From assembly GCA_964528635.1 (NCBI GenBank), contig CAZGSW010000004.1, positions 5,667 to 37,666 of the forward strand: a stretch of DNA of 32,000 bases. Direction: 5' to 3'. Position 1 is the stretch's first letter. Every line of letters begins with the position of its first letter. The translations under genes and the position numbers were made by a program. This document shows positions 2,774 to 26,881 of the stretch, in pieces. The notes under the pieces were generated by a model. It did not search any database, was not told the origin of the DNA, and saw only the letters and a program-made list of their open reading frames with translations. This DNA comes from an uncultured Rhodoplanes sp. (GTDB lineage Bacteria > Pseudomonadota > Alphaproteobacteria > Rhizobiales > Xanthobacteraceae).

Positions 2774-3232
2774 ATGCGGTTTGACTCAAGCAAAACTCAC
2801 CTCGACTGTCGAATTCATGTGTTGATGGAAGGAAACGCCAAAATGGGTATTTTTGAAAATCAAGTTGATATTGCTCGGGATAATCGTTCCCCGGGACCAT
2901 GCTTTGGTTCGAACACAGCCTTCGGAGAGGGGCGAGCGATACGATCCCTCCATTGCGTTCTCGCTGCTATTTTTGTGCTGGCGAGTTGGCCGGCCGCTGC
3001 GCAAAACAATTTTCGGATCGTGCGTGAGTTTCACCAACCCGCCGCGCCTAATGTCGAGCGCGCGGACATTACAATTATCAACTGCCAAAGCAGAGAATAC
3101 TACATCTACCGGTATTATCGCTCTCACGGACCAAACTACCGAGCGATCATTCCAGGGCGCTGGGGCAACCCCTTGGGAGGAAGGGACCACCATACGTTTG
3201 ACTCGGCCGTAAAGGCCTCCTGCAATTGGTGA
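2774..3232 (+). CDS. hypothetical small secreted or membrane-anchored protein; start codon uncertain
   Basis: 152-aa ORF in an A/T-richer patch. Internal signal-like segment LHCVLAAIFVLASWPAAAQ followed by a polar Tyr/Arg-rich domain with two Cys. No family recognised. Confidence 0.4.
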   Translation: MRFDSSKTHLDCRIHVLMEGNAKMGIFENQVDIARDNRSPGPCFGSNTAFGEGRAIRSLHCVLAAIFVLASWPAAAQNNFRIVREFHQPAAPNVERADITIINCQSREYYIYRYYRSHGPNYRAIIPGRWGNPLGGRDHHTFDSAVKASCNW

Positions 3233-3397
3233 AGGTTGTCGCATCGAACCGCGTAGCGGCGTTCCGCCTGTTCCCGTCCGGGCCTCCGGGCTTTGGCGGG
3301 AACTGTGAATAGATGCTTCGACGTCGCGGGCCATTGCCCGCCAGCCCGGCCAGAGTTTGTCGATCGGCAATAGACCTTCGGCAATAGAAGGAAAGTC

Positions 3398-3904
3398 ATG
3401 ATGAAACGCTGGTCCTGTTTGGTGTTTCTTGCGGTTGTTATGATGACGGCACCGGTTCAGTCCCAGCCTCAGCGCAACGCGCGTCAAGTCCTGAATCTTT
3501 TTAATGATATCTGTCTTGCCACGATTGGCGACAGTTTTGCTGGCGCCAGCGAGAAAGCCCGCGAACTGGGCTTCCGCACTGAAGCGGCCGCTTCATATAT
3601 CGAACTGAACGCCCCGGGTTTTTCCGGCGGCTGGTCGCGTACAACAACCCCGCGCAACGAGAAGTACTGCGAGATCGGCTCGACGACCGCCAACCGTCTT
3701 GAATTGGCACGTTTGATCGAACAGCGCCTGCGGCAGAACACTGGCCGCGAGCCGAGACGGGTCGTCCACCCCCTCGCCGACGCGGTCGCCTGGTCGATCC
3801 CCTACCAGGGCAAGCGACTCTATTATACTGTCACGGTGGGCTTTAACGATGATCCACGCATTGGTGCAACGGCCCAAATTACGTTTCACCTTAGTCGGCC
3901 ATAG
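3398..3904 (+). CDS. hypothetical secreted protein
   Basis: 168-aa ORF. SD-like GAAGGAAAG lies upstream of ATG 3398. Canonical signal peptide MMKRWSCLVFLAVVMMTAPVQSQ. No family recognised. Confidence 0.6.
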   Translation: MMKRWSCLVFLAVVMMTAPVQSQPQRNARQVLNLFNDICLATIGDSFAGASEKARELGFRTEAAASYIELNAPGFSGGWSRTTTPRNEKYCEIGSTTANRLELARLIEQRLRQNTGREPRRVVHPLADAVAWSIPYQGKRLYYTVTVGFNDDPRIGATAQITFHLSRP

Positions 3905-3949
3905 GTGACCTGAACCGCCCCGGGTTCGTCGGAGGCCATTTGGGTTGAG

Positions 3950-4140
3950 TCACGCCGCCAAGGCTGGTTGTCCCCAGCATGGGGTATAGCGTTCCTCGGC
4001 TTCTGCCAGCGGGATGTTGCCGATTGGCTCAAGCAGCAGCCGGTTGTTGAACTAGTCCACTCATTCCAGCGTTGTGAACTCGACTGCTTCGAACGACCGC
4101 CACGGTTGACATGCTCCCCCAACATGCCCTCGGTCATAAG
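3950..4140 (-). pseudogene. IS3-family transposase (rve integrase) C-terminal remnant with in-frame stops
   Basis: Minus-strand reading gives ...PWRSFEAVEFTTLE*VD*FNNRLLLEPIGNIPLAEAEERYTPCWGQPALAA*. This matches the conserved IS3-family C-terminus (LEWVDWFNNRRLLEPIGNIPPAEAE). Both Trp positions are now stop codons (TGA 4061-4063, TAG 4052-4054). Confidence 0.65.
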
Positions 4141-4575
4141 GAGCATCTGTTCCAACTTTGCTCCTGATCGGGGCGTGCTGCGAACTCATTGGGCGTGAGA
4201 CCGTTCGGGCTCGTGTGCGGTCTGTTGGTGTTGTAGTCGATCCTCCATTCTTCGATGATCCGGCGCGCCTCATTGAGGATGCCGAACAGGTATTCGTTGA
4301 GGCACTCATCGCGCGGGCGCCCGTTGACGCTTTCCACCAACCCATTTCTGCATTGGTTTGCCGGACTCGGCGTAGTGCCATTCGATCGCACGCTCCTGCT
4401 GTCACGGTACACGACGTTGGAGGTGATCTCGCGGGTTCGTCCGAGAACTTCCTTCATCCAGTCGTGAAGCTGAAATGTGTGGACGCCCAAATCCTGCGAC
4501 GCCTGCATATACGACACGGCCAGGTCATTAATTGTCGGAGCCTCCTTGGATGTCGGAGCCTACTTGCCAATCTCA
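4134..4575 (-). pseudogene. internally deleted IS3-family element remnant (OrfA HTH fragment joined to an OrfB C-terminal fragment)
   Basis: 127-aa ORF. N-terminal SYMQASQDLGVHTFQLHDWMKE resembles the IS3 OrfA HTH. The C-terminal part NGLVESVNGRPRDECLNEYLFGILNEARRIIEEWRIDYNTNRPHTSPNGLTPNEFA resembles the IS3 OrfB end. The catalytic core between them is missing. An 18-nt tandem duplication lies at the upstream edge (4533-4561). Confidence 0.75.
4446..4521. repeat. left copy of a direct repeat (IS3 OrfA-derived) shared with 19133-19207
   Basis: Hand alignment with 19133-19207 gives about 80% identity over about 75 nt with one 1-nt indel, same orientation. Confidence 0.7.
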
Positions 4576-5019
4576 ATCCCTGCCTTTGGGCCACGCTACG
4601 CGCATTGCCGCAGCAAGGTCGACCTCGCCTGGTTGCTCACGCGCCTTGTGATATCTCTCTGGCAGATTTCGAAGGTTCGCAAGCCTGAACCTCGCGCAAC
4701 TCGACCGAATGCGGACGCGACCCTTGAGGAGATGAACTCTTGCCTCACGGACGGCTCGCAGGACGTCTCGAACCAACCCGGCCGCAACCTGGTACAAACG
4801 GACTAGTCTGAAGCGTTCAGCTTTTCCGGGGTGCGTGCTTAACTGGCGCGATCAATGCGGGCCGCACCTTTGGGCGCGCATTCAAACTGCCACTTCGGAT
4901 CGAAAGCCGAAGTCCGGCCCCGATGCGTTCTTGGGGACGGCGCGGGGACGAGTGGTTCTACCGACAAGCCGGAAGACTTGAACGACCTGAATTCGCTGGA
5001 AAGAGACGGGAGAGGCCTG

Positions 5020-5241
5020 ATGGGACCGGCATTATTGACGATCCTTTCGGTGACGTTGCGTCGCTGGCGAAAGCAACAGTGGAGCACCCCGGCCACACGT
5101 CACCCACCGCCCCGCCTGCCTCGCATCACACCGCACCAGCCGCCGCGCAAGCCAACGACGGCAACACGCCAACCTCCGCCGCGCTGCATCGATGGCAAAT
5201 GGGTGAACCATACCGATCCCCGCTGCAAGCCGTACTGGTGA
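5020..5241 (+). CDS. possible small Pro/Arg-rich protein immediately upstream of the sterol operon (weak call)
   Basis: ATG 5020 is preceded by GGGAGAGG. The product MGPALLTILSVTL... is followed by a PPPR-rich segment ending CIDGKWVNHTDPRCKPYW. The stop lies 6 nt before the Rieske gene ATG. The third-position G+C I counted by hand is about 70%. Confidence 0.25.
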   Translation: MGPALLTILSVTLRRWRKQQWSTPATRHPPPRLPRITPHQPPRKPTTATRQPPPRCIDGKWVNHTDPRCKPYW

Positions 5242-5247
5242 CGGGTC

Positions 5248-6387
5248 ATGCCAGAACAGTCCGCACATGGAGAACGAAGGGTGCGTCTCGATGAAAGTCC
5301 GACGCCACCGTCTTTTGAACAGGCGAAGACACGGCGTCAGCAGGCACGCGCCGCAGGACTGCACCCCGATCATTGGTATGCCGTCGAGTACGATTCCGCT
5401 CTCAAGGCCGGTTGCGTCATAGAAACCCACTTCTGGGGACGTTCGATCGCTTTGTTCCGGGGCGACGACGAGACCGTTCGGGCGATCGAGAACCGCTGTC
5501 TGCACCGTCAACTGAAGCTATCGCTCGGCGAAGTGAAGGGCTGCAACCTCGTGTGCGCGTATCACGGCTGGACGTACGACGGTTCCGGTAAGCTGGCAGC
5601 GGTTCCGCATGATCTGTTCGGTCACAAACAGCCTGCAGCCGGGCTGAGGTCCTTTCCGGTCAAGGTCCGATATGGACTGATCTGGATATTCCCAGGCGAT
5701 GCGCGGCTTGCCGACGCCACGCCGTTGCCGGATATCCCCGAACTCGAAGGTCCCGATGCCTGGGTCTGCGTGCCGCTCGATTTCACCTGGCAGGCGCACC
5801 ACTCGATGATCATCGAAAACGTCTGCGATTTCACGCACGCGCATCTGCATCGCGACTACCGGCCGATCAACGATGCGACACTGACGCTGCTCGAACCCGG
5901 CGAACGCCGCGTAAAACTCAGTTACGATGTGCTGGTGGGCGACGGCCAATTCTCCAGGCATTTCGTCGACCGCAACAAGGTCAAGGTCGACAAAATGGAA
6001 TTGTGCTTTGAGTACCCATATCAGTGGTCCAACACGGGCGACCGCATCAAGCACTGGTGCTTCTTTCTGCCAATCGACCGCCGGATCACTCGTGTCTTCT
6101 TTCTGTTCTATTTCGACGCGCTGCGAATTCCGGGAACGCATATTCCTATTCCGAAATGGCTGATGAAACCCGTTCTCAAAGCCGCCAACCGGATGATGAT
6201 CCGGCCGATCCTGATGCAGGATGGCGAAATGGTCGAGGCCGAGCAAAGGGCCTATGACTCGAACACGTCCGGTCCTGCAATCGAACTCAATCCCGCAGTT
6301 CTCGAATTCCAGAATCTGACGGTCCGCTCATGGCAACGGCATCTCGACGCCCCACAACTCCAACCGCGTGAGGCTCGTCTTGCGTAG
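5248..6387 (+). CDS. Rieske [2Fe-2S] non-haem-iron oxygenase; candidate sterol C-4 methyl oxidase (SdmA-like) by context
   Basis: 379 aa. Rieske motif CLHR-x16-CAYHGW. Mononuclear-iron region ENVCDFTHAHLH. First gene of a coupled operon with OSC and squalene epoxidase. Confidence 0.8.
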   Translation: MPEQSAHGERRVRLDESPTPPSFEQAKTRRQQARAAGLHPDHWYAVEYDSALKAGCVIETHFWGRSIALFRGDDETVRAIENRCLHRQLKLSLGEVKGCNLVCAYHGWTYDGSGKLAAVPHDLFGHKQPAAGLRSFPVKVRYGLIWIFPGDARLADATPLPDIPELEGPDAWVCVPLDFTWQAHHSMIIENVCDFTHAHLHRDYRPINDATLTLLEPGERRVKLSYDVLVGDGQFSRHFVDRNKVKVDKMELCFEYPYQWSNTGDRIKHWCFFLPIDRRITRVFFLFYFDALRIPGTHIPIPKWLMKPVLKAANRMMIRPILMQDGEMVEAEQRAYDSNTSGPAIELNPAVLEFQNLTVRSWQRHLDAPQLQPREARLA

Positions 6388-8380
6388 CGCCACCGTACCC
6401 AAACCGGTCGATAGCTCCTCGGATCTGGCAGCGGCGGCGCTTACGACACTTCAGAGGCAAGACGGCGGCTGGGAAGGTGAAGTCGTCTGGTGCCCAATCA
6501 TTACAGCCCAGGTTGTGATCTTGCATGTCATCGCAGACAAGCCAATCGCGGAAGAGCGGCGGCGTTTGCTGTTGAGACAGTTCGAGGTGACGCGCCGGCC
6601 TGACGGCGGCTGGGGATTGCATCCGGAATCGCACTCGTACCGATTTGTCACCACGTTGGTCTATGTCGCGGCGAGATTGCTTGGCGAGCCGCCGCACAGC
6701 CCGATGCTGAGCGAAGCGCGCGCATTGCTGGATCGCGAACCCGGCGGGATCTTCGGCCTGCCGCAGTGGGGCAAGGTGTGGCTTTCGTTCATCGGCCTGT
6801 TCGATCCGCGCGGACTGAAGCCGCTCCCGCCCGAGGTGTTCCTCCTTCCGCACTGGGCCCCGATCTCGCCGCAGCGGTATTATTGTCATACCCGCTACAT
6901 TTACCTGGTTATGTCGTACCTGGTTGGCTCGGGATACTCCGCAAACATCGGGCCTATCACCGACGAATTGCGCCGCGAACTCTTCGGTAATGCTCGCCCT
7001 GACGACGCGATCCGCCATCGTCATGATCTTGCATTGAGTGACTCCTACGTGCGTCCGAGCCGCATGCTTGTATCTCTATACGGTGCAATGTCCGCTTTTG
7101 GGAACATTGCAAAGTATCTGCCTGGGGCGGCGGCACTTCGACGCCGCGCGCTCGACACATGCATGAGGCAGATCGTTTTTGAACAGAGAAGCACAAACTA
7201 CCAGGGCATCTCTCCGGTAAGCAGCGTTCTGAACACGCTCGCGTTGCATGCGCAGGATGCGCACAGCGCGGATACCAGACACAGCTTCGACGGCATCGAA
7301 AGCTGGCGCTGGGACGACGAACACAGCGGCTCGCGCTATGCGGGCGCGCGCTCCACCACCTGGGATACCAGCTTTGCAATCCAGGCGCTGCTTGCAAGCG
7401 GGCACAAGACATCACTCAGGCACGCCGCATCATTGCGCCTCGCCTATCGGCGTCTGACCGAAATGCAGATGACGTCAGATCTTGACGGCGGCCGGGAGCA
7501 TGCGCGTGACACGATCCTGGGTGGCTGGTGCGTCAGCGATGGCACTCATCGATGGCCAGTCAGCGATTGCGCCGCCGAAGCGATCATCAGCCTGCTCGAT
7601 TGTCACGACGTGCCCGGATTGATCCCGGAACGCGACCGCTTGCCAGCATCCCGGCTGGATCAGGCTGCAGCCTTTATTCTCAGTCGGCAAAACGACGACG
7701 GCGGATTCGGCAGCTATGAGCGACGCCGCGGCGCCCGCTTCCTGGAACGGCTCAATCCATCGGAAATGTTCGGCCAGTGCATGACCGAACTGTCTTATGT
7801 CGAATGTACCGGCTCGTCGGTGCGCGCGCTCATCCGCCTGAAACGGCATGGTACGAATCTGCCTGCCTCGCAACTGCAGTCCGCCATCGATCGCGGACTA
7901 AGAATCATTTTGGATCGGCAGCGCCCGGATGGAAGTTGGCCGGGCTTTTGGGGCATCAATTTCATTTACGGCGCGCATTTTGCAGCCGCTGCGCTTGGCG
8001 AAGCCGGAGTCCCGCCCAGCCATCCCGCCCTGGCTCGAGCCGCCCGTTGGCTCAAGGGCGTCCAGCACGCGGACGGTGGCTGGGGCGAACACTTCTCCGG
8101 CTGCCTCGACGACACTTTCGTCGACCATCCCAGCAGTCTCATCAGCAGCACCGCATGGGCTTGCCTGACGCTGATGCATGTCGAACCAATTGTTTCGCCG
8201 GAACTGGAGCGAGGCATCGCATATCTGGTCGATCGTCAGCTCGAAGGGGGCGGCTTTCCGCGCGAAGGAGTCAACGGGGTGTTCTTTGGCACCGCCATGC
8301 TCGAGTACGCACTTTACAACAGCTACTTCCCGGCGATGGCGCTGGCGCAATTCGACAGGCTCCGCAATGGCAGACATTGA
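6368..8380 (+). CDS. oxidosqualene cyclase (lanosterol/cycloartenol-synthase type), not a squalene-hopene cyclase
   Basis: 670 aa. Catalytic motif WPVSDCAAEA is of the OSC VSDCTAE type, not the SHC DxDDTA type. OSC-type YYCHTRYIYLVMSYL. Several QW-type repeats (QNDDGGFGSYE, QRPDGSWPGFWG, QHADGGWGE, QLEGGGFPRE). GTG start at 6368 overlaps the upstream gene by 20 nt; the start is uncertain by a few codons. Confidence 0.9.
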   Translation: MRLVLRSATVPKPVDSSSDLAAAALTTLQRQDGGWEGEVVWCPIITAQVVILHVIADKPIAEERRRLLLRQFEVTRRPDGGWGLHPESHSYRFVTTLVYVAARLLGEPPHSPMLSEARALLDREPGGIFGLPQWGKVWLSFIGLFDPRGLKPLPPEVFLLPHWAPISPQRYYCHTRYIYLVMSYLVGSGYSANIGPITDELRRELFGNARPDDAIRHRHDLALSDSYVRPSRMLVSLYGAMSAFGNIAKYLPGAAALRRRALDTCMRQIVFEQRSTNYQGISPVSSVLNTLALHAQDAHSADTRHSFDGIESWRWDDEHSGSRYAGARSTTWDTSFAIQALLASGHKTSLRHAASLRLAYRRLTEMQMTSDLDGGREHARDTILGGWCVSDGTHRWPVSDCAAEAIISLLDCHDVPGLIPERDRLPASRLDQAAAFILSRQNDDGGFGSYERRRGARFLERLNPSEMFGQCMTELSYVECTGSSVRALIRLKRHGTNLPASQLQSAIDRGLRIILDRQRPDGSWPGFWGINFIYGAHFAAAALGEAGVPPSHPALARAARWLKGVQHADGGWGEHFSGCLDDTFVDHPSSLISSTAWACLTLMHVEPIVSPELERGIAYLVDRQLEGGGFPREGVNGVFFGTAMLEYALYNSYFPAMALAQFDRLRNGRH

Positions 8381-9701
8381 ATATGATGTCGTCATTGCCG
8401 GTGGCGGGATTGCCGGAGCGGCGGCCGCCGCCGCGCTTCGAGAATTCAATTTTTCCGTTCTGGTCGTCGAGCCCGGACAACATTCAGAGCGACGGCTTGG
8501 GGGCGAGTTGATTCATCCGGCTGGCGTGTCGGCGCTCAAGGAATTGGGGCTGTTCGACGAACGCGCCTTTGGCCGCGGGGTCTCAATCGCTGGCTTCGTT
8601 GCGCTGCCAGGTCTTCATGACGACTGGTCGGATATCCACCTGCCCTACGCAAGCGACTGGGGCCCTCGAAACGCAATCGCGCTGGACCACGGCACACTTC
8701 GAGCCACACTTTGGTCTGCGATCGAGGCTATGCCACATGTCACCACGATCCACGGCGGACGTGTGGTGGGCGTCGACAATTCGCCAACTTTTGTGCGGGT
8801 TGCGATCCAACAAGGGGCGCGGTCACATACCGTGACCGCACGGCTCCTGATCGCAGCCGACGGCGCATCCAGTGCGGTCCGCTCCCTTGCCGGAATAAAG
8901 CACAAGCGGCGCCCGATCTCCACGATCACAGGCTATCTGATCAGCGACGCCAATCTGCCCCATCCGGGCTTTGGTCACGTTTTCATGGGGGGCGCGGCCC
9001 CGTTGCTCGTCTACGAGATCGGCAACAGTCGCGCGCGAGTGCTGTTCGATCAACCTGTCGGGCAGTCTGCGGTACCTTGCCAGACACATCAGCGCCAGAT
9101 CGTTTCATGCGTGCCCTACCCCAGGCTTCGTGCCGAGATCGAAGCAGCCATGGCCGATCAGCGCGGCTTGCGTTTCGTCAGCGTCAATGTCGTTGTCGCG
9201 CGCTCAGCCCAGCACCGCATGGTGTTGATGGGCGATGCCGGAGGAAGCTGCCATCCGCTGACTGCGACCGGCATGACGGTCGGCATCATCGACGCTCTGC
9301 GGCTGCGCGACACCCTGCGATCCAGAAATCGGGACATTCCGGCTGCAATCGCCCTCTACGGTCGGCTTCGACGCGCACCGCAGCGGACGCGCCATCTGGT
9401 CGCTTCTGCTCTGCACGATGCGTGCAGCTCGACGGGCTCGGAGCAGATGTTGATTCGCGATGGTCTGGTTAACTACTGGCGGCGCAGTCCGCGCGGACGT
9501 CAGGCCAGCATGGCCATTCTGGCCATGAGCGATTACCGGATCGGGTCTGTGTTGCGCGAGATTCTGACGGTGATGAGCCATGGCATCGCGGCGCGATGGA
9601 CAGGCTGGTCGTTTGGCGGCGTCTTGCATGGACTCCGCATGATATCGGGCCTGACGGGAGTTCTGATACGCCAGGTCAGCTTCGCCATACGGGTTCGCTA
9701 G
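8367..9701 (+). CDS. squalene monooxygenase (squalene epoxidase), FAD-dependent
   Basis: ATG 8367 overlaps the OSC stop by 14 nt. FAD fold YDVVIAGGGIAGAAAAAAL. Also GGELIHPAGV, DGASSAVR and MGDAGGSCHPLTATGMTVGIIDA, as in squalene epoxidases. The 63 codons upstream in the ORF track overlap OSC and were not used. Confidence 0.85.
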   Translation: MADIEYDVVIAGGGIAGAAAAAALREFNFSVLVVEPGQHSERRLGGELIHPAGVSALKELGLFDERAFGRGVSIAGFVALPGLHDDWSDIHLPYASDWGPRNAIALDHGTLRATLWSAIEAMPHVTTIHGGRVVGVDNSPTFVRVAIQQGARSHTVTARLLIAADGASSAVRSLAGIKHKRRPISTITGYLISDANLPHPGFGHVFMGGAAPLLVYEIGNSRARVLFDQPVGQSAVPCQTHQRQIVSCVPYPRLRAEIEAAMADQRGLRFVSVNVVVARSAQHRMVLMGDAGGSCHPLTATGMTVGIIDALRLRDTLRSRNRDIPAAIALYGRLRRAPQRTRHLVASALHDACSSTGSEQMLIRDGLVNYWRRSPRGRQASMAILAMSDYRIGSVLREILTVMSHGIAARWTGWSFGGVLHGLRMISGLTGVLIRQVSFAIRVR

Positions 9702-9711
9702 AGGACACAGC

Positions 9712-10752
9712 ATGATTCTTGTAACCGGTGCGGCAGGACATCTCGGCGCAAATCTGCTGCGCCGTCTTCTGGCGGATGGCGAAACGGTTCGCATCATGCT
9801 CCGGACCGATGCTGAGCGCGCGACCGTCAATGGCCTGCCTGCCGGTATCGTCGTCGGCGATTTGCGCGATACGAACTTTGTCGCGGCAAGCACGCAAGGC
9901 TGCCGACAGATATTTCATTGCGCAGCGCGTGTCTCGACAGACCACAGAGGCAACAGCGACATCTTTGACATTAATGTTCTCGGCGCTCGCAACATCTTGA
10001 AGGCGGCACAGGCTGCCAAAATTGAGAAGGTGGTGGTTACGGGGTCCTTCAGTTCGGTCGGCATCCGCACCGATCGCGCCAGCAACGAGGACGATCCGTA
10101 CAATCCGCTGGACCCGCTGCTGCCCCAACAGTTGCCGTATTGGCGCACCAAGGCTGCCGTCGAGCACGAATGCCTCAAGGCTTTCGCCGAGGGTTTACCC
10201 GTGGTTGTCGCGATATCGACCGGCATTCTCGGTCCGAACGATTACAAGCCGTCTCGTATGGGACGGGTGCTGATCCGCTTCGCGCACGGACAGCTGAGGG
10301 CCTATATGCCCGGCGGAGTGCCCTTCGTCGCCGCCGATGATGTCGTTCAGGGCCACCTGCTGGCCATGCAGAAGGGTCGTCCGGGGCAACGCTACATTTT
10401 CTCGACCGCTGACATGACATTCGACGAATTGATGACAATCTATTCACGCGTTACCGGTCGTCGGGGTCCCCTGTTCCGGTTGCCTCCGTCCCTGATGACG
10501 GCGGCGGCGCATGCCGCCAGCGCACTCATGCCGTATGTCAACCCGCACGGCGAACAGCTTCTCACGCCTGCCGCAGTCCGTCTCCTTGCGCTGCATCGGC
10601 GCGCCGACACGTCGAAGGCGCAGCGCGAACTGGGATTTCGGCCGACCTCCATCGAGGTCGCCATAGAGCAGGCCTACAACTGGTTTTTGTCGCATGGAGT
10701 TATCGAGCCTCCGCCCGCGACCGCAAGCCGATCGGTGGAAGCATGGCGTTAG
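9712..10752 (+). CDS. NAD(P)-dependent extended SDR (3-beta-HSD / epimerase family); candidate sterol C-4 decarboxylase/reductase (SdmB-like) by context
   Basis: 346 aa. SD-like GAGGA upstream. Rossmann motif ILVTGAAGHLGANL. Catalytic YWRTK (YxxxK). Sits between squalene epoxidase and the flavoprotein in the coupled operon. Confidence 0.8.
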   Translation: MILVTGAAGHLGANLLRRLLADGETVRIMLRTDAERATVNGLPAGIVVGDLRDTNFVAASTQGCRQIFHCAARVSTDHRGNSDIFDINVLGARNILKAAQAAKIEKVVVTGSFSSVGIRTDRASNEDDPYNPLDPLLPQQLPYWRTKAAVEHECLKAFAEGLPVVVAISTGILGPNDYKPSRMGRVLIRFAHGQLRAYMPGGVPFVAADDVVQGHLLAMQKGRPGQRYIFSTADMTFDELMTIYSRVTGRRGPLFRLPPSLMTAAAHAASALMPYVNPHGEQLLTPAAVRLLALHRRADTSKAQRELGFRPTSIEVAIEQAYNWFLSHGVIEPPPATASRSVEAWR

Positions 10753-12002
10753 GAACGAAAGAGCATATTCACGACGTGTGCGTGGTCGGCGCAGGACCGG
10801 CGGGCGCGACCTGTGCCTATTATCTCGCACTCCATGGACGCGACGTCGTGATGCTGGAGCGCAAGGCGTTTCCCCGCGACAAGATCTGCGGTGACGCCGT
10901 GACCAGCCAGGCGCAAGTCCATCTGAGGCGGATGGGCGTACTGCAGCAGATCATCGACAACGACGAGGGGCACTTCGCTTCTGTCGGCGGCATGGTCAGC
11001 CCGGCTGGCTACAGTTACATCGCAAAATCGATCGATCACCTGGCATCGACCCAGGTTATTGCCATCAAACGCATGTTTCTCGACGTGCGGATTGCGCGGG
11101 CTGCCGAAACGGCAGGCGCATTGTTGGTCGAGGACTTCAACGTTGCTGACGCGGCATTCGATGCCGCATCTGGTGTCTGGACGATTTCGTCCGACGGCGC
11201 CAAGCACGCAATCCGTGCCCGCGCCCTTGTTGCGGCCGATGGAGCCCTGTCTCGCCTTGCACGGCGGCTGGGCTACGTGTCGGCACCGCCCGATGCGGTG
11301 TGCAGCCGGGCCTATGTGCGCGCCCGCACTACGAACTTCGATGCGGACGGCGTCGCCTACTATCCGAAGGATCTGCTACCTGGCTATTGCGCCATCTTTC
11401 GCGAGGCGCGCGATGAGTTGAATTTCTGCACCTACGTTATTCCAGGCGGCAATGCGATGGTCGACGACCTTCGCACAATGCACCACCGGATCTTGCGAGA
11501 CGATCATCATGTCCGCCGGGCGATCGGCCCCAATGCCGAGATTGACCCGATGAAGGGCGCGCCGCTCCGCTGCGGTGGTATCGAACGCAGCTATGGCGAC
11601 CACTTCGTCATCGTGGGAGATGCCGCCGGGCACATCGATCCTTTGACCGGCGAAGGCATCCAGTACGGCATGGACGCCGGCCAGTATGCGGCCGATACGC
11701 TGCACGAGGCTCTCGCAGCGGACGATTTGAGAGCACCGTCGTTGAAGGTCTATCAGGATCGTTGGGTGAAGCAGTTTGGACGCGACTTCGCCTGGTCGGC
11801 GTCCGTCGCCCGCATCTATTTGCGCTTCCCTGCCCTGCTCGATGCCAGTGCTCTGGCACTCCAGCGTCTTGGGCCCCCGTTGCTCGCGCGATGGGGGGAG
11901 ATCATGACAGGAGCGCGGCCAAAGACCGATTTCCTCAAGCCAGGCCTCTGGGCCCCCATCATGCGCGACCTGGTCGCGCTGCAGCTACGGTCTTCCACGT
12001 GA
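10743..12002 (+). CDS. geranylgeranyl-reductase-family FAD-dependent oxidoreductase; substrate unknown
   Basis: 419 aa. DVCVVGAGPAGATCAYYL (FAD), FPRDKICGDAV (GGR-type Cys motif), AADGALSRLAR, VGDAAGHIDPLTGEGIQYGMDAG. Overlaps the upstream gene by 10 nt and the downstream SMT by 4 nt. Confidence 0.8.
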   Translation: MALGTKEHIHDVCVVGAGPAGATCAYYLALHGRDVVMLERKAFPRDKICGDAVTSQAQVHLRRMGVLQQIIDNDEGHFASVGGMVSPAGYSYIAKSIDHLASTQVIAIKRMFLDVRIARAAETAGALLVEDFNVADAAFDAASGVWTISSDGAKHAIRARALVAADGALSRLARRLGYVSAPPDAVCSRAYVRARTTNFDADGVAYYPKDLLPGYCAIFREARDELNFCTYVIPGGNAMVDDLRTMHHRILRDDHHVRRAIGPNAEIDPMKGAPLRCGGIERSYGDHFVIVGDAAGHIDPLTGEGIQYGMDAGQYAADTLHEALAADDLRAPSLKVYQDRWVKQFGRDFAWSASVARIYLRFPALLDASALALQRLGPPLLARWGEIMTGARPKTDFLKPGLWAPIMRDLVALQLRSST

Positions 12003-13027
12003 GCACCCAGGACAAGGCCCCTGGTCTGGTCCAATTGCTGGGCAGGATGTCGCGGCGCGACCGCGTCTACCAGCGGACCGGCGAATATCTTGCCAGCCAT
12101 GGCGTTACGGCCGGCGCCGCCGGACGCGCCTCCCGCTACGCCGACGTAGTGAATGGCTACTTCGACCTCAGCACCGACTTTTACGAATTCGGGTGGGGTC
12201 AATCTTTTCATTTCGCCCAGCAGGCCAAAGGCGAAAATTTCCGGGATGCTATCATTCGTCATGAGCGCCGCCTGGTGGACACCTTGCAGCTTCGTCCCCA
12301 AATGACAGTGCTCGACGTCGGGTGCGGTGTCGGCGGTCCGATGCGCAACATTGCGCGAATGTCGGGCTGCTCGGTCGTTGGGATCAACAACAACACCTAT
12401 CAGGTGACCCGCGCCGGCCTGGCGAATGCTGACGCGGACCTGTCAGGCCGGTGCAGCGTTGTCCCGGGCGATTTCATGGCGATGGCTTTTCCGAACAGTT
12501 CGTTCGACGCAGCCTATGCCATTGAGGCGACCGTCCATGCTCCCGACTGGACAGGAGTCTTTCGCGAGGCCAACCGATGCCTGAAGCCTGGTGGCGGGTT
12601 TGCACTTTACGACTGGTGCATGACGGACCGGTATGACGACGGCAACTCATTTCATCGCGATCTGAAGCAGCGCATTATCGAGGGCAACGGCCTTGTCGAC
12701 ATCGGCACGTCGCAGCAATTGATTGCAGCAGTCCGTGCGGCCGGTTTCGAGATCATCGAACACCGCGATGCGGCAAGCGACGGCGGGGAGCCGTGGTATC
12801 AGCCGCTGGCACAGAGCGGACTATCGCTGTCATCGTTTCGTGCGTCGGTTTTCGGACGCAAATTGACGCGAGCTGCCCTGCAAACGATGGAGCTGCTCCG
12901 GCTTGCACCGGGCGGAGCTGCCGATATGGTGACCTTCCTCGACAAGGCGGCCGTGGCTTTGGTCGATAGCGGCAGAGCCGGTGTCTTTACACCGATGTAC
13001 TTTGTTCACGCTCGAAAGCGCGATTGA
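11999..13027 (+). CDS. sterol C-24 methyltransferase (ERG6/SMT family)
   Basis: SMT signature regions are present: YFDLSTDFYEFGWGQSFHFA, SAM site VLDVGCGVGGPMRNIARMSGCSVVGINNNTYQV, AYAIEATVHAP, LKPGGGFALYDWCMTDRYDDGNSFHRDLKQRIIEGNG. The start is either GTG 11999 (GTGA overlap with the upstream stop) or ATG 12047. Confidence 0.9.
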   Translation: MSTQDKAPGLVQLLGRMSRRDRVYQRTGEYLASHGVTAGAAGRASRYADVVNGYFDLSTDFYEFGWGQSFHFAQQAKGENFRDAIIRHERRLVDTLQLRPQMTVLDVGCGVGGPMRNIARMSGCSVVGINNNTYQVTRAGLANADADLSGRCSVVPGDFMAMAFPNSSFDAAYAIEATVHAPDWTGVFREANRCLKPGGGFALYDWCMTDRYDDGNSFHRDLKQRIIEGNGLVDIGTSQQLIAAVRAAGFEIIEHRDAASDGGEPWYQPLAQSGLSLSSFRASVFGRKLTRAALQTMELLRLAPGGAADMVTFLDKAAVALVDSGRAGVFTPMYFVHARKRD

Positions 13028-13124
13028 CCGAACGCCATAGGCGTGAAAGGCGTTCCCAGGCGCGCCGCGCTACTTAGGCACTGTCGAGCCATCCGCCGGA
13101 CTGTTCGGTGCCGGCAGCCGTCGT

Positions 13125-16100
13125 TCACCGGACCCGTCGACAGTTGCTTCCGGCTACCGGATATGGCGACGGAAACGTCGATGTGCTGGCGACGCCCATA
13201 ATCGAGTAGCTGACAGAGGTGCAGATATATTGGCCCGCGGCAGTCGGCTGACGCTGGCCAGGCGGGCGATGCACTGGAGGTGGACGGCGAACCTCCTGCG
13301 GCGTGGTGCAATTCCACCGGCCATTGCCGGCATAGCTTGTAGCGCGTGAGCGGACATGAACTTGCGTCTGACAGGCCCGATGACCGTCCGCCCAGGTGGG
13401 TGGCCTGCACTTGCGGTCGCGCATGACGTAACCGCCGCTGCATCCGCACTTATAGGTCGAGTTGGGATTGACAGCCATGGCATAGGCCTTGGTCCCGAAT
13501 TCGGTTTGGCATACCGGGTGTCCATCGGCGATCGTCTTTGGCCGCTGAACACAAACGGCAAGAATTTTGTCCAAGACGTAGCCGCTGTTGCATAGGCACA
13601 TCGGAGAAGCCGACATGGCCGTCGCCGGATCGATGTGGGCATTCGTACCGATCTGGAGCTTGCAGCGGTTATCCAAATCCGCGATTTTTTCGTTCTTTTC
13701 ACGATCCCGGCAGGTGCTGAGGGCCTGTATGAGGCGTTGCTTGACGCCACTGGCCGCCGGATTTGAGACTTCTTCCAGCGCCGCCCGCCAGCGCTCGATG
13801 CCCTCGACTTTGCAGGCGGTGACGGCCTGTTCGGCGTTGTTGATAGCGGTGCGAAGCTGGTCGATCCGGCTCAACGCGTTCGTCAGACGCTCGCGCAACT
13901 CGGCGCAGGAGGTGCCGTTCAGGCTTGCAAGCGCGCGCCGCGTCGTACTTTCGGCGGCGCTCAGATCTCCTGCGGCGAAACTTGCCCTGGCTCGCTCAAA
14001 GGCTGCGCTGGCATGGGTAATGGTCTCGCCTTTGGTGAACAGAGAAGTCAGCATCAGATGGGAGATGGATGCGTAACGATCCTTGAGACGGGCCACCTCC
14101 GTTGAGTCGCAGCGACCGATCGCACCGCTCACTTCCGACATGATGCTATCCAGGCGTTCGACCCTGGACATTCCTGTGGCGACCTTTCCAGCAAGTGCGA
14201 TGCAATCGACGCCATTGCCAATCCCGTCCAGCGCGGTTCTCGCGCGTCCTAGATCGGCCCTGGCGTCGTCCATTTTTCCGGCGTTGTAGGCCTGCTGCGC
14301 ATTTGCATAGGCGGCTTGCGCCTGGCTGACCGCTGCGGCGATCGGCTCGAGTCTGGCAATCTGTTCCCTGGCCGCATCGGAGCCATCGTCACGCAGCTTT
14401 GCCAGAATGTCGGCGTTCTGTTGCGGCTGGCAGGTCAGAGCAGCCACGGGCTTTGGTTTCAGCCATGCTTCGTTGAAGGCGACAAGTGCCTCGGCGGCGC
14501 ATCGCTCCATGCGAGCGATGGCTTCGCTCGTCGTCGATCTGATCGCATCGGGATCGAGCGTTGGCGACTGGGCTGCGGTTTCCGGGAGCGCAGGTACCGC
14601 TGCTCCGGCCGGGCATTTCGCGTCGATCCGGGCGATCACGCCACGCAATGCGTCCGGCGGCGGACTGAGGATCATGCTTCTTGACTGCCACGGCGCCATA
14701 TTCCTTGGCGCGCCATCCCCGCGGGGCGGGTCGATATCCTCTTTGGTCCAGCTTTCCTGAATCAGGGCATTGCACCCGATGTTGCTTGAGTTTCTCGTCA
14801 GCAGGCCGGCCAGGATCGTGCGCGGGCGCTCCCCGGCCGGCGACGCGGCAAGAGGCTGGAGGCAGGTCTTGATATCGTCGATGGACACCTTCACCGGCTG
14901 TTGCAGGTCGAAGACGTGCTTTTGCGCATCAGCCATGGCGCTGTGCGCGACCGTAAACCGGCCTCGGGCGCTGCCAAACTCACCGACGATACCATCGAGT
15001 TCACTTCGTATCGCGGCGAGCCGGGATTGCACCTTGGCACGCGCAGCAATCGCTAGCGCCGACGACGGCGGCGGTTGGGCGGCGCTATCGCTCGCCTTGA
15101 GGCCTGCAATTTCGCCGGCACCGGCCGTCAGTTCTCGTGCGACTATCTGCGCTTCGCGGGCGGTGGCAAGCGCGTCGTCCAGGTGAGCGCGCGCTTCCGC
15201 CTTGTTCTTGGCTTTACGGATTTCCTCCGGCGCAGCACAAACGGACTCCACCGCAGCATTCAACGCCGCGCTGTCCCTGGCGACTGACGCAGCGAGCCTC
15301 GCCGATTTCGCCGCATTGTCGCTGGCGGTCGTGTCCGGCGCCGGCAATTCGCACGCCGATGTATCCATTAATTCCAATCGCATGCGCAGATTGCTAGTCC
15401 GCGCCGACAGGTTGCCGCCGACCTCGAGTGCCTGCCGGGCCATAAGCTTGTTCTGCTCGTACCGTGAACAGTAATTGGCAATTCGGTGAGAAAGGCTTGC
15501 AATATGGTTCAGGTCGCCGTCGATCGCGGCCAGCGTTTCATCAAGTTTCTTTTCGAGCTCGAGAAGCTGCGCAGACAGTCCGTCCCATTGCTTGTCATCG
15601 AGCAAAGAGCCCGCAAGTTCATTCAGGCGGGCGTCCGTCAACGCGCCCGCAATTTGAGCCACCTCGGACATTTCCTTGTTCATCTCGGCCAGCTGAGGTT
15701 CAATGGCCTGCCCTATGGTCCTGCGCTGCGCGGCGATTTGGCGTGCCTTGGCGGCAATCCATCCGACCGGTGTCGACGCGTGGGGAAGTCCGCGTCGGTT
15801 GGCTTCAAGGAACTCCTTCAGGGCAAGGCCTTTATCGATGTCCATCTCTTGCGCCTGGTTGCCGAACTCGAACATGGCGGAAAATTTCGCATTCACGATG
15901 CAACCGTCGAAGGCCTCATAGGCGTCCGCGACATTGGTGGTGCGCGCGTATTCTTCCTTGTATTTGTCGATGCAGGGGCCGTCGCCGTGCGTCCAACTCG
16001 TCCGCAGGTAATTGGTGCCCCACTCGATCAGCGCAAATTCGGCATCGACAAGTTTGAGATAGATGTCGCCGGGAGTCAGCGCCGCCATTTTTGATGCAAA

Positions 16101-17129
16101 CAGATCTTGGGCCATTTTGGACGGCAAAAAATCGCCAATAGTGGCGGCACCTTTGCTGAGATCACCGAACCGGCTCGTCTTGCCAGCCTTGTTGACCTTT
16201 CCGGCAAAGCCGCCAATGCCGGCGACGCCGCCGAGATTATTCATAGTTGTCAGGGTGGAATTGAAATCATAGTTGTTGGCACTGAACGCAAAATTGATGG
16301 CGGCTTTCATGAGATCGCGGGTTTGGGCTTTGCCTTCCGCTTTCAATTCTTCGGTTATGATTTTCATGGCGTCGCTGCCGGATCCGCCATTTTTGAGCGC
16401 CAGCAATACGCGCTTGGCGGCGCCGGCATGTTTGACACCCCGGTCCCAGATGACCTTTGCATTGACCATCTTTTTTTCCTTGAGGACATCGCTCACGATG
16501 GTGGCGAAACTCAGCGCGCCCAAGTCGGCGCCGTGATCCACCACGGTGTAGTAGTCGCCAGCCGAAAGCGCGCCGGCAATTTCTCCCATTGCCGACGGGT
16601 TGGCCTTGATTGCGTCGTAAATGGCCCGCGCATACTTCGCTTTATAAGCTTCGATCAGGCTGGGTTTCGTGCGCTTTATCTCTTCGTCGATCAATTGACC
16701 GAGCGGTTTTCCCTTGCCTGACGCAAGCACCGCGCTGCCATCTGCCGCCCTGTCAAAAATGCGACTGGTCACAGAAGCCTTGTCGCGCTCCATTCGGTCT
16801 CTTGTAAAGATCCGCCGCTTCAGGTCTTCGGCCTTTTTCCGGGCTTCCGACTTTTCCAGGGTCTTCACGACGGCGGCATGGGCGGTCGTCAATTCCTGGC
16901 GCATCCACTCCAGCACCTGATCATGCTGGCTGGAATTGAGCATCTTGATCGGGTCACCGGCGTTACGCAGGTTGTCGCCGGGACTGGAGCTCCTGCCCAG
17001 CAAGTTCATCAACGTTTCGGCGAATGTCGCCCGCGGCAGCGCCGGGCAACTATTGGCAGCCTGCGACGAGTTGACGGGCCAACAGACAATTCCGATCGCC
17101 AGTAATGATACCAAACTTTTCAAGCGCAT
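13125..17129 (-). CDS. very large secreted protein: N-terminal unknown domain, long Ala-rich helical repeat region, Cys-rich C-terminal modules
   Basis: 1334-aa uninterrupted ORF. Signal peptide MRLKSLVSLLAIGIVCWPVNSSQA. Internal ~70-aa repeats (AQAAYANAQQAYNAGKMDDARADLGRARTALDG...C versus ASAAFERARASFAAGDLSAAESTTRRALASLNG..C). C-terminal CxC-x2-GYV modules. Starts 13 nt after the upstream gene. Confidence 0.8.
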   Translation of the reverse strand: MRLKSLVSLLAIGIVCWPVNSSQAANSCPALPRATFAETLMNLLGRSSSPGDNLRNAGDPIKMLNSSQHDQVLEWMRQELTTAHAAVVKTLEKSEARKKAEDLKRRIFTRDRMERDKASVTSRIFDRAADGSAVLASGKGKPLGQLIDEEIKRTKPSLIEAYKAKYARAIYDAIKANPSAMGEIAGALSAGDYYTVVDHGADLGALSFATIVSDVLKEKKMVNAKVIWDRGVKHAGAAKRVLLALKNGGSGSDAMKIITEELKAEGKAQTRDLMKAAINFAFSANNYDFNSTLTTMNNLGGVAGIGGFAGKVNKAGKTSRFGDLSKGAATIGDFLPSKMAQDLFASKMAALTPGDIYLKLVDAEFALIEWGTNYLRTSWTHGDGPCIDKYKEEYARTTNVADAYEAFDGCIVNAKFSAMFEFGNQAQEMDIDKGLALKEFLEANRRGLPHASTPVGWIAAKARQIAAQRRTIGQAIEPQLAEMNKEMSEVAQIAGALTDARLNELAGSLLDDKQWDGLSAQLLELEKKLDETLAAIDGDLNHIASLSHRIANYCSRYEQNKLMARQALEVGGNLSARTSNLRMRLELMDTSACELPAPDTTASDNAAKSARLAASVARDSAALNAAVESVCAAPEEIRKAKNKAEARAHLDDALATAREAQIVARELTAGAGEIAGLKASDSAAQPPPSSALAIAARAKVQSRLAAIRSELDGIVGEFGSARGRFTVAHSAMADAQKHVFDLQQPVKVSIDDIKTCLQPLAASPAGERPRTILAGLLTRNSSNIGCNALIQESWTKEDIDPPRGDGAPRNMAPWQSRSMILSPPPDALRGVIARIDAKCPAGAAVPALPETAAQSPTLDPDAIRSTTSEAIARMERCAAEALVAFNEAWLKPKPVAALTCQPQQNADILAKLRDDGSDAAREQIARLEPIAAAVSQAQAAYANAQQAYNAGKMDDARADLGRARTALDGIGNGVDCIALAGKVATGMSRVERLDSIMSEVSGAIGRCDSTEVARLKDRYASISHLMLTSLFTKGETITHASAAFERARASFAAGDLSAAESTTRRALASLNGTSCAELRERLTNALSRIDQLRTAINNAEQAVTACKVEGIERWRAALEEVSNPAASGVKQRLIQALSTCRDREKNEKIADLDNRCKLQIGTNAHIDPATAMSASPMCLCNSGYVLDKILAVCVQRPKTIADGHPVCQTEFGTKAYAMAVNPNSTYKCGCSGGYVMRDRKCRPPTWADGHRACQTQVHVRSRATSYAGNGRWNCTTPQEVRRPPPVHRPPGQRQPTAAGQYICTSVSYSIMGVASTSTFPSPYPVAGSNCRRVR

Positions 17130-17885: not shown

Positions 17886-18974
17886 TCAGCCGGCCGACCC
17901 CGGATTAATCAACCCCAGAACTTGCGCCATCAGCTCGCCGCGATTGCGCACGCCCGTCTTGCGATAGATGTTTTGCAGATGGTTGCGCACGGTGTTGCGC
18001 GTCAACGCCAACTCATTTGCAACGTTCTGGAGATCCAGCCCGCATGAAATCGATGACAGGATACGGGCTTCGGACGGTGTAAGCCCAAACATCGCTGGCG
18101 CCGCGCGTTCGAGGAAACCGGCATATCGGCGCGGATCGCGAATGAATATTTTTGCTTCTCGGCTGCCTGGCATCGGCAGGGTCTGCACAATCAATGTCGC
18201 CTCGGGCTTTGGAAGCGGCAGGCGTAATAGTCCAGACGTGCCCGATGCGGCTTTGGCGAGCAGGCTACGAAGCAAGACATTCAATGAAGGAGTGCCGGTC
18301 AGTAGTTCGCCGTCAACAAGGGACAATCCGCTGCCTTCACTGATCAGATTTTCTGCCGCGCTATTGGCAGTGACGACTGCGCCTTTTGCGTCAAGCGAGA
18401 ACACCGCCCACGGCAAATGCTCGTACAGAGGATCGGCGCGCAATAACTGCCGTTCGCTTGCCTGACGGGACTTGGAAAGCTTCCAGGCTTTGGCAAGATT
18501 TTCTGAGGTCCTGGAAAACGCATTGATTTTATCGCTGTCGGGATGACCTTGCCTGGCTTCAAATTCAATCGAATGAAATACCGAGACATCGCCATCATCG
18601 TAAAGCCGCGTCCCGAGAAAATAGCGAACATTGCTGGCCCGCTGAATGGCCGCGTAAAATTCACTTCGGTCGATCGCGGCCTCGGATATAAACCGGGCTT
18701 CATAAGCGATATGGCCCGGCGCATGGCGCAAGGAATAGCGCATCCGCGGATTAATCGCGTTGAGATGATCGATATATTCCTGAGCGCCGTGCTGAAGTCC
18801 CGGCCCGATCCAGTTGCTGATTTTTCCGGTCTTGCGGTTGAGCTCGAAAATGACGCCCCCACTGCTGTCGTAGTGGTCAAGCAGTTTTCCAAGAACGCGC
18901 TCGAACGGCAGCTCGCCGAGTGCGGCGTCAAACATCAGGCTATCCAGGCGCGAAATGTCGTCGAGCCGTGACAT
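17886..18974 (-). CDS. LuxR-family transcriptional regulator (unknown N-terminal sensor domain plus GerE HTH)
   Basis: 362 aa. C-terminal LTPSEARILSSISCGLDLQNVANELALTRNTVRNHLQNIYRKTGVRNRGELMAQVLGL. Confidence 0.85.
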   Translation of the reverse strand: MSRLDDISRLDSLMFDAALGELPFERVLGKLLDHYDSSGGVIFELNRKTGKISNWIGPGLQHGAQEYIDHLNAINPRMRYSLRHAPGHIAYEARFISEAAIDRSEFYAAIQRASNVRYFLGTRLYDDGDVSVFHSIEFEARQGHPDSDKINAFSRTSENLAKAWKLSKSRQASERQLLRADPLYEHLPWAVFSLDAKGAVVTANSAAENLISEGSGLSLVDGELLTGTPSLNVLLRSLLAKAASGTSGLLRLPLPKPEATLIVQTLPMPGSREAKIFIRDPRRYAGFLERAAPAMFGLTPSEARILSSISCGLDLQNVANELALTRNTVRNHLQNIYRKTGVRNRGELMAQVLGLINPGSAG

Positions 18975-21068: not shown

Positions 21069-22166
21069 TTAAGTATTTGATATCGCTAGCCCGCAGGGTA
21101 GCGGTGCAGGACTCGGCTTGTGTCCGTGCAAAAGACGACAAAACTCGGCAAAGATCAGGTTCCAGGATGCCACCCCATGCATCCTGATCCAAAACCGCAG
21201 TACATCCCGAACGCAATCTCTCAACGGTCGGTTTAGCGCCGTCGCCACCTGCTCCCATTCATGCCGGATGCTGAGCCAAGTCTGTTCATCGACATCTTCA
21301 ACAGCAAGGGTGTGGGCTACATCTGGGTGCCGGGCACCGCGTGCATACCGGGAATGAAACGCGCGAACAAAACCCTGCATAGCGTCAGCCCGCTTCACGC
21401 AATCGCCACCAATTTGAAGCGATTGTCGGAGAGCCGTATCCACTTCACCACGCAGCGCGGCTAGCCAGCACTCCGCGATCTGCTTTCCTTTGCCAAACCC
21501 GCATGCAGATAACGCCTCATTCACTCCTATCGCGCCGCCTATGATGCCTACCTGAAGAGACGCTTGCGCACGCCCAACCCACCCGTCGGAACCGCAGGCC
21601 AAGATTTCAAGCGCCCTGTCTTCATAATTCACACGGTGAGCGATGCATCTCGTTCGCAAGTCAGCCACAACTTCCCCGATGGGAGACGGGATCATTTCGT
21701 AAACCTGACATCGAGACTTGATGGCGGCACTCACCTTCATCATATCGGACGATAAAAACACAGCCACATGAAGCTCGATTTTCTCAAGCGGCTTCAGCAG
21801 CCGGTCCGATACTGGTCCCGGCAGGCACTCCGCGTTTCGCACAACCAAAACGAGGGGCTCCATCCCTACCGAACGAAGCTTGGTCAGTTGGTCACGAACG
21901 TGATCGTGTGAATGGTGCACTCGCGCGTCAAGCTCAATGTAACGCAGGGATCCGGCTGCCATAACCCCCTGGCAGTTCGAGCAAACACCGCATGGCTTTG
22001 TGGGCGATTGGCAAAGCACGCTCTTTGCGTAGAGCCTTGCAAGGCTCAATTTACCGGAGCCCTCGGGCCCCCATAGCATGAGGGGCCGATGCTTGCCGGC
22101 CGCGCTGCGCTCAAGCAAGGCCGCTACCACCACTTTCTGTCCGACGACATCGTTGAAATGCTTCAT
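21069..22166 (-). CDS. clamp-loader delta-prime (HolB)-like AAA+ protein with a degenerate ATP site
   Basis: 365 aa. FNDVVGQ, P-loop GPEGSGKL (Thr/Ser replaced by Leu), zinc module CQSPTKPCGVCSNC, Walker-B position LVLVVRNAE (no DE), retained SRC motif (KSRC). ATGA overlap with the upstream gene. Confidence 0.8.
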   Translation of the reverse strand: MKHFNDVVGQKVVVAALLERSAAGKHRPLMLWGPEGSGKLSLARLYAKSVLCQSPTKPCGVCSNCQGVMAAGSLRYIELDARVHHSHDHVRDQLTKLRSVGMEPLVLVVRNAECLPGPVSDRLLKPLEKIELHVAVFLSSDMMKVSAAIKSRCQVYEMIPSPIGEVVADLRTRCIAHRVNYEDRALEILACGSDGWVGRAQASLQVGIIGGAIGVNEALSACGFGKGKQIAECWLAALRGEVDTALRQSLQIGGDCVKRADAMQGFVRAFHSRYARGARHPDVAHTLAVEDVDEQTWLSIRHEWEQVATALNRPLRDCVRDVLRFWIRMHGVASWNLIFAEFCRLLHGHKPSPAPLPCGLAISNT

Positions 22167-25268: not shown

Positions 25269-25392
25269 GCAGTTACCATATCGTGCTTAGCATTGTGGCT
25301 GCCAGCGCGGTACTGATCGCACCGGCAAGGAGGCCCGTCGCACGGGCCGACCGTCTCACATACCGAAGCGTCGCGAAATGGTTCATCAGCAG

Positions 25393-26218: not shown

Positions 26219-26258
26219 GAAATGGTTCTTTCGATTAATGGTTATGGTTCGCTGCTCG

Positions 26259-26854: not shown

Positions 26855-26881
26855 GAATTCTCCGCCCGGTCAGGAGAATTC
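26855..26881 (+). promoter_or_regulatory. perfect 9-bp inverted repeat covering the SD of the PD-(D/E)XK gene (RNA hairpin or operator)
   Basis: GAATTCTCC (26855-26863), 9-nt spacer, GGAGAATTC (26873-26881). The right arm contains the AGGAGA SD and ends 1 nt before ATG 26883. Confidence 0.35.

Follow-up and report, generated by a model that had tools for sequence, protein, structure and literature searches.

A predicted ERG6/SMT1-type sterol C-24 methyltransferase as the last gene of a six-gene sterol operon in an uncultured alphaproteobacterium

A stretch of 32,000 nt from an uncultured Rhodoplanes sp. (assembly GCA_964528635.1, contig CAZGSW010000004.1), referred to below as the window, was analysed with respect to a gene at positions 11999–13027. 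Judged from sequence, its product is with good confidence a functional S-adenosylmethionine (SAM)-dependent sterol C-24 methyltransferase (SMT) of the ERG6/SMT1 family, encoded by the last gene of a six-gene bacterial operon for de novo sterol synthesis. The six genes are located on the + strand in the following order:

5248..6387, + strand: SdmA-like Rieske oxygenase (C-4 demethylation, oxygenase step), first gene; Pfam Rieske and VanA_C
6368..8380, + strand: oxidosqualene cyclase (OSC); TIGR03463, TIGR01787
8367..9701, + strand: squalene epoxidase, 444 aa; Pfam SE PF08491, 78 bits
9712..10752, + strand: SdmB-like NAD(P)-dependent dehydrogenase/decarboxylase (C-4 demethylation); Pfam Epimerase, 3Beta_HSD
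10743..12002, + strand: flavoprotein of the geranylgeranyl reductase (GGR) family, Bsr-like, candidate sterol side-chain reductase; TIGR02032
11999..13027, + strand: predicted SMT, 342 aa, GTG start, assigned by domains and homology

The SMT frame opens with GTG at 11999, sharing GTGA with the upstream TGA stop (4-nt overlap), and its product is an exact match to a recorded protein (P0001). Homologues of the same length, 340–342 aa, were aligned over 99% of the protein, so that the gene boundaries given in the original prediction proved right; the four motif strings named there, VNGYFDLSTDFYEFGWGQSFHFA, VLDVGCGVGGPMRNIARMSGCSVVGINNNTYQV, YAIEATVHAP and KPGGGFALYDWCMTDRYDDGNSFHRDLKQRIIEGNG, were all located in the frame ending at 13027. 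Two domains were detected, Pfam Methyltransf_11 at residues 105–202 (66.9 bits, E = 2.5e-18) and Sterol_MT_C (PF08498) at residues 278–340 (69.2 bits, cut-off 21.7, E = 3.2e-19), i.e. a class-I SAM methyltransferase followed by Sterol_MT_C, the order by which membership in the ERG6/SMT1 family (EC 2.1.1.41) is defined. Identity to plant cycloartenol C-24 methyltransferases (SMT1) was about 50% over the full length (E ~1e-99), the best named matches all being enzymes of this kind, and the homology search returned hundreds of bacterial homologues labelled sterol 24-C-methyltransferase by the Joint Genome Institute (JGI). With yeast ERG6, 41% identity over 340 aligned positions was obtained, with no large internal indel. 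Scores of this order lie far outside chance. The assignment to the ERG6/SMT1 type is hence borne out by the C-terminal domain and by both comparisons, and the closest relatives are sterol methyltransferases, not the cyclopropane fatty acid (CFA) or tocopherol methyltransferases against which the original prediction had set them.

The alignment used for residue comparisons comprised the window protein, 119 homologues and yeast ERG6. The ERG6 sequence was checked against the numbered residues of a preprint on SMTs (bioRxiv 10.64898/2025.12.19.695621), 25 of 25 of which fell on the expected letters. The following elements were located in the gene:

12173..12214, + strand: Region I (sterol-binding), TDFYEFGWGQSFHF, residues 59–72, corresponding to ERG6 78–91
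12314..12340, + strand: Region II, SAM-binding DVGCGVGGP, residues 106–114, corresponding to ERG6 125–133
12686..12688, + strand: codon for Asn230, aligned to ERG6 249, where propylating SMTs all have Gly
12830..13018, + strand: Sterol_MT_C domain, residues 278–340

Region I agrees with the motif Y81-E-[YF]-G-W-G-x-x-F-H-F, with Tyr81 and Phe83 (ERG6 numbering here and below), and its reading YEFGWG is presumably that of plant SMT1; Region II agrees with the SAM-binding pattern D125-x-G-x-G-x-x-G-P133. The Region I–IV motifs and Sterol_MT_C are common to the window SMT, yeast ERG6 and plant SMT1, whereas the window protein is distinguished by an N-terminus about 19 residues shorter than that of ERG6, by its bacterial operon setting and by Phe74, Pro175 and Asn249. 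Among the 25 residues listed in the preprint as conserved in all functional SMTs, 24 are present, the exception being Tyr74, which is replaced by Phe (F55 of the window protein); in the clade to which the window SMT belongs, 12 of 13 members have Phe74, and Pro175 is a further mark of this clade. A confident AlphaFold model, for which 41 sequences were used (predicted local distance difference test, pLDDT, 87.6; predicted template modelling score, pTM, 0.88) has the class-I methyltransferase fold. In PDB searches with the model and the sequence, RebM, MitM, TleD and GPP C-methyltransferase were nearest (16–26% identity), and chain 6f5z, named '24-sterol C-methyltransferase', was matched weakly (E = 7e-6). 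No SMT structure has been solved so far (bioRxiv 10.64898/2025.12.19.695621), and since the PDB holds only generic methyltransferases in the vicinity of the window protein, it cannot discriminate between a sterol and a non-sterol enzyme. On the strength of domains, motifs and homology, the window SMT is very probably active at C-24.

As to product length, it had been claimed that the number of methylations cannot be read from the sequence. According to the preprint, Gly249 is needed, though not sufficient, for propylation and hence C30 products; the mutants G249A, G249S, G249N and G249T retained C29 and lost C30 products, G249N with this effect in the Chlamydiae enzyme, and Phe at 81 or 83 gave a higher C30 yield only with Gly249 present (bioRxiv 10.64898/2025.12.19.695621). 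In the window SMT these positions are Tyr81, Phe83 and Asn249. Phe83 is shared with the propylating SMTs (from a Chlamydiae metagenome-assembled genome, MAG, and an Aplysina aerophoba symbiont), raising C30 yield in the Chlamydiae enzyme, but is also a feature of many non-propylating SMTs; the propylating enzymes have Gly249 in place of Asn249, and position 243 is Gln in the window SMT, as opposed to Glu in the propylating bacterial enzymes. A 24-isopropyl product is therefore not expected, this reading being rejected on account of Asn249, and one methylation, at most two, is likely. To this extent the claim was too cautious, while it stands for the choice between one and two.

For comparison of gene neighbourhoods, 80 SMT-centred loci were kept from GTDB species representatives (79 of 80 from MAGs), most of them with SdmA, OSC, epoxidase (SQMO) or SdmB homologues ≤10 kb from the SMT gene; further loci are cited by their L numbers in the same series. 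The 80 loci do not include the species of the window; the best SMT match among them was 61% identical, and the nearest relatives overall (L001, L081, L082/83, L084/85) were 53–67% identical. Within the clade, identity to the window SMT is 61–67%, compared with ~47–54% to other bacterial SMTs, and clade members are 60–69% identical to one another. In a neighbour-joining (NJ) tree the window SMT is placed in this metagenomic clade, apart from plant sequences, its close relatives all stemming from MAGs or metagenome contigs. The clusters of L001 and L081–L085 are longer than that of the window and additionally contain a cytochrome P450 gene (CYP51 position), 1–2 EBP-domain genes and an ERG4/ERG24-family reductase gene. 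With its P450 and ERG24-like genes taken away, L084 has the gene order of the window; by gene content, the window cluster is a reduced version of those of its relatives.

The linkage of the SMT gene to a cyclase operon, as originally predicted, was confirmed, with the OSC gene at 6368–8380 lying in the same operon. Adjacent genes overlap by 20 nt (SdmA/OSC), 14 nt (OSC/epoxidase), 10 nt (SdmB/GGR) and 4 nt (GGR/SMT), the remaining junction being a 10-nt gap; guanine plus cytosine (GC) content is uniform at ~61–62%, and all six open reading frames (ORFs) are intact. The SdmA-like protein is 65% identical to its L084 homologue and scored 359 bits with NCBIfam NF052579 (4beta-methylsterol monooxygenase), below the equivalog cut-off of 600; the SdmB-like protein scored 264 bits with NF052578 (SdmB), likewise below a cut-off of 600. 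With the cyclase, 772 bits were obtained for TIGR03463 (2,3-oxidosqualene cyclase; cut-off 851) and 443 bits, above the cut-off, for TIGR01787. The cyclase carries the motif THRWPVSDCAAE, with His at what we take to be the position typical of cycloartenol synthase (CAS) and Val at what we take to be the lanosterol-type position; typing as a lanosterol or cycloartenol enzyme was dropped because these residues are ambiguous. For squalene epoxidase, the mechanical ORF start at 8178 lies 200 nt within the cyclase gene (overlap 8178–8380) and is not the true start; aligned by tblastn, the L084 homologue matches from its residue 1 at ATG 8367, and relatives of 442–445 aa have the identical 14-nt overlap with the OSC gene. 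Scans of the window for promoters and terminators gave none above shuffled expectation, the tRNA and Rfam scans of the window gave no matches, and a tblastn search of PLSDB plasmids with the SMT gave no match.

The gene immediately upstream of the SMT gene encodes a member of the GGR family (TIGR02032, 170 bits, above the cut-off of 158.8), for which the closest NCBIfam relative beyond the general family model is MenJ (123 bits, far below the cut-off of 700). This is in line with the published tree of Bsr, a GGR-family flavoprotein of Sandaracinus amylolyticus by which desmosterol is converted to cholesterol and zymosterol to zymostenol in lysates (Lee & Welander 2025, J Bacteriol, PMC12004948). 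Two motifs are invariant among seven homologues of the window reductase, the Cys in FPRDKxCGDA and PGYCA[IL]FRE; this Cys may correspond to the catalytic Cys47 of Bsr. A PDB sequence search with the reductase returned halogenases and one archaeal GGR, which were of no help in mapping motifs.

Homologues of the reductase at 55–77% identity are located in sterol clusters and beside SMT genes. The 4-nt reductase/SMT overlap is kept in L001 and L081–L085, down to 53% SMT identity. In a Myxococcota (Myxococcales) MAG, L018 (identical with L086), the GGR and SMT genes are divergently oriented and lack further sterol genes in their vicinity; L087, a cluster of an Acetobacteraceae MAG, contains both at non-adjacent positions, and GGR–SMT linkage was also found in the metagenome contigs L089, L092 and L098. 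Altogether, GGR genes are co-located with sterol genes in the window operon, L001, L081–L087, L089, L091 and L092. The control consisted of 70 loci whose GGRs are distantly related (25–34% identity), and in none was an SMT or other sterol gene nearby. A literature search yielded no description of the GGR–SMT pairing; the terms 'methyltransferase' and 'SMT' never occur in the Bsr paper (PMC12004948), nor 'reductase' and 'Bsr' in the SMT preprint (bioRxiv 10.64898/2025.12.19.695621).

The activity and regiochemistry of the SMT, the order of steps and the substrate of the reductase are what we infer from these genes, as follows. Squalene epoxidase and OSC would, going by gene content, provide a tetracyclic protosterol whose side chain has the delta-24(25) bond, and from this protosterol the SdmA/SdmB pair would remove C-4 methyl group(s). 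The SMT would methylate C-24 of this bond with SAM as donor, leading to 24-methylene or 24-methyl-delta-24/25 products, and the Bsr-like flavoreductase, translationally coupled to the SMT, would most likely saturate the remaining side-chain double bond to give a saturated 24-methyl side chain. An SMT requires the delta-24(25) bond, which is the bond that Bsr removes. This requirement, taken with the recurrent GGR–SMT coupling, points to a reductase subfamily acting after the SMT, and suggests that the reductase works on 24-methylene, 24-methyl-delta-24(25) or delta-25(27) products as a bacterial counterpart of ERG4/DWF1. Whereas desmosterol and zymosterol are substrates of Bsr, that of the window reductase may thus be a methylated side chain; the window reductase is also coupled to its SMT gene by the 4-nt overlap, and no SMT is mentioned for Bsr (PMC12004948). 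We therefore put forward, tentatively, a conserved two-gene module of GGR and SMT, in which the SMT product would be reduced by an enzyme not related to ERG4 or DHCR24/DWF1 of eukaryotes, the outcome being a nucleus-methylated (4- and/or 14-methyl), saturated 24-methyl sterol of ergostane/campestane type. Nucleus methylation follows, under this module, from the single SdmA/SdmB pair and the lack of a C-14 demethylase or reductase gene in the cluster. If true, an apparently free-living soil alphaproteobacterium would be a source of 4-methyl-24-alkyl sterane precursors, which are usually read as algal.

Several points weigh against a functional C-24 SMT acting in an operon of this kind. The window SMT has Phe in place of Tyr74, a residue kept by every functional SMT tested, and departures at the 25 conserved positions are frequent in inactive enzymes (bioRxiv 10.64898/2025.12.19.695621). 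No assayed enzyme is known from the clade (the window SMT and P0002–P0013), the CYP51, C-14 reductase (ERG24) and EBP of the relatives are without a homologue in the whole 32-kb window, and an IS3 transposase fragment (4134–4517) lies just upstream of the operon; a partial decay of the sterol pathway is conceivable. The likeness of the window reductase to S. amylolyticus Bsr was established at family level, and a delta-24(25) reductase beside an SMT would compete for its substrate unless its specificity differs from that of Bsr. Taken together, Phe74, the missing genes and the transposase fragment could indicate an intact-looking but inactive or decaying SMT gene in a cluster under dismantling, and 11 SMT homologues were indeed inactive in vitro in the Welander laboratory (bioRxiv 10.64898/2025.12.19.695621). 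We regard this as quite improbable. The occurrence of Phe74 throughout most of a clade with 60–69% mutual identity marks it as a clade feature, not a lesion, the other 24 conserved positions are kept, and the SMT gene and its five upstream genes are intact with their overlaps preserved.

An SMT-family enzyme of other regiochemistry or substrate, i.e. with activity at C-4 (STRM-like) or C-26/C-28 or on a non-steroidal triterpenoid, is a similarly unlikely explanation. SMT-family enzymes with C-4 activity do exist (PMC9136925), F74 and P175 are signature residues peculiar to the clade, and none of its members is known to have been assayed. However, the C-24 SMT type is seen in Region I, in the SAM motif and in the C-terminal domain, and the best named matches are of that type as well; STRM-type enzymes are reported from alveolates, haptophytes and nematodes (PMC9136925), and 20 of 24 diverse bacterial SMTs tested methylated C-24 (Brown, Olagunju, Giner & Welander 2023, Nat Commun, PMC10070321). 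A non-sterol methyltransferase resembling SMTs, of the CFA synthase, tocopherol/ubiquinone or sarcosine/dimethylglycine type, was suggested by weak Pfam CMAS and Ubie matches and by the nearest solved structures. These reflect generic fold similarity; the NCBIfam non-sterol models scored far under their cut-offs (CFA synthase 40.7 vs 400 bits, sarcosine/dimethylglycine methyltransferase 65 vs 550, UbiE/MenG 30 vs 158), and as Sterol_MT_C and the identity to plant SMT1 settle the sterol family, this candidate was rejected as effectively refuted by sequence. The chance of eukaryotic contamination or a mis-binned eukaryotic gene is equally negligible: SMTs are classically eukaryotic and plant sequences are among the top named matches, but the gene is free of introns, its start overlaps the preceding gene by 4 nt inside an operon with bacterial-type SdmA/SdmB, operon GC is uniform, and the NJ tree sets the protein apart from plant sequences. 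It was rejected on the ground of this bacterial gene organisation. The preferred reading thus remains a functional C-24 SMT.

Outside the operon, the following features lie in the window:

256-2184, - strand: NahK/ErcS-like hybrid histidine kinase
4134-4517, - strand: C-terminal fragment of an IS3-type transposase; rve_3, 2.4e-19
17886-18974, - strand: LuxR/GerE-type regulator
28740-32000, - strand: Gabija anti-phage system; GajB at 28740-30659, PADLOC 832 bits

The kinase is 74% identical to a protein of a Pseudolabrys sp. MAG and ~52% to those of Nitratireductor, Methyloceanibacter, Devosia and Bosea, which indicates a Hyphomicrobiales alphaproteobacterium as the likely host. Of the 'cultivable-looking proteobacterial context' stated in the original prediction, the proteobacterial part is supported by this gene; 'cultivable-looking' found no support, the nearest genomes all being MAGs. 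The transposase fragment, ~700 bp upstream of the operon, lies in a stretch of lower GC (58%), which suggests rearrangement or mobility of the region around the operon.

The SMT gene faces, in convergent orientation, a gene at 13125-17129 (- strand) for a 1334-aa protein of no Pfam family. This protein has a signal-peptide-like N-terminus, long stretches rich in Ala, judged helical by eye, and, in its Cys-rich C-terminus, repeats of C-x-C-x-x-G-Y-V. A three-gene - strand block at 21069-27842 contains two DNA_pol3_delta2/AAA-type ATPases (21069-22166 and 23286-25268) around an unannotated 378-aa ORF, after which a PDDEXK_13 nuclease follows (26883-27842, 342 bits); PADLOC matches were weak, and the block may be another defence or mobile module beside Gabija. 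GajA starts at 30656 and runs past the window end, its frame being open to base 32000 and its profile matched from position 342.

Some observations were made on the related loci. The SdmA-type Rieske oxygenases of L081 (5558-7195) and L082 (5542-7182) are ~545 aa long, compared with 379 aa and no extension in the window; in L081, an N-terminal EBP (sterol C-8 isomerase) domain was matched and a separate 165-aa EBP gene follows. In L087 (5246-6711), two tandem Coq4-family genes are inserted between cyclase and squalene epoxidase. The RefSeq isolate Pseudomonas fluorescens ISL-62 (L066, NZ_JAGGOG010000028.1, ~3000-14200) has an island with GC of 52–57% against 61–63%, containing TraU, a NUDIX gene, an OSC (51% identical to that of the window), an SMT (47%, Sterol_MT_C 2.8e-18) and a P450. 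If not contamination, this would be a cultured bacterium whose OSC and SMT genes reside on a conjugative element.

Steranes with an alkylated side chain (ergostane, stigmastane, 24-isopropylcholestane) serve as biomarkers of eukaryotes, specifically algae or sponges, and to our knowledge proof that a living bacterium makes side-chain alkylated sterols is still missing. The argument that bacterial SMTs linked to a cyclase bear on this reading, raised in the original prediction, is correct, but was published by Brown et al. (2023, PMC10070321), who assayed 24 bacterial SMTs of metagenomic origin in vitro, many of them taken from sdmAB/OSC clusters, and found methylation of desmosterol. Bacterial SMTs in sterol clusters, active in vitro, have been known since 2023, and the present locus is no discovery of principle. 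The window SMT has in common with those enzymes the family, the domain pair, the sdmA/sdmB/OSC/squalene epoxidase setting and the geobiological relevance; it differs in falling into a separate clade, in its likely Hyphomicrobiales host and in its GGR/Bsr-type partner, the side-chain reductases in the part of Supplementary Data 1 of that study considered here being homologues of DHCR24 or ERG4 (PMC10070321). Of interest in the present locus are the Y74F replacement of its clade, the conserved pairing of Bsr-like and SMT genes, the reduced cluster without C-14 demethylation genes and the apparently free-living alphaproteobacterial host.

From such a host, the locus adds an intact SMT gene in a compact operon that also encodes a side-chain reductase of bacterial type. 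Provided that the source organism or one of its relatives proves culturable, it would be a candidate for the in vivo demonstration of bacterial alkylated sterols, and the recurrent pairing of reductase and SMT offers a testable hypothesis for how bacteria may finish the 24-methyl side chain.

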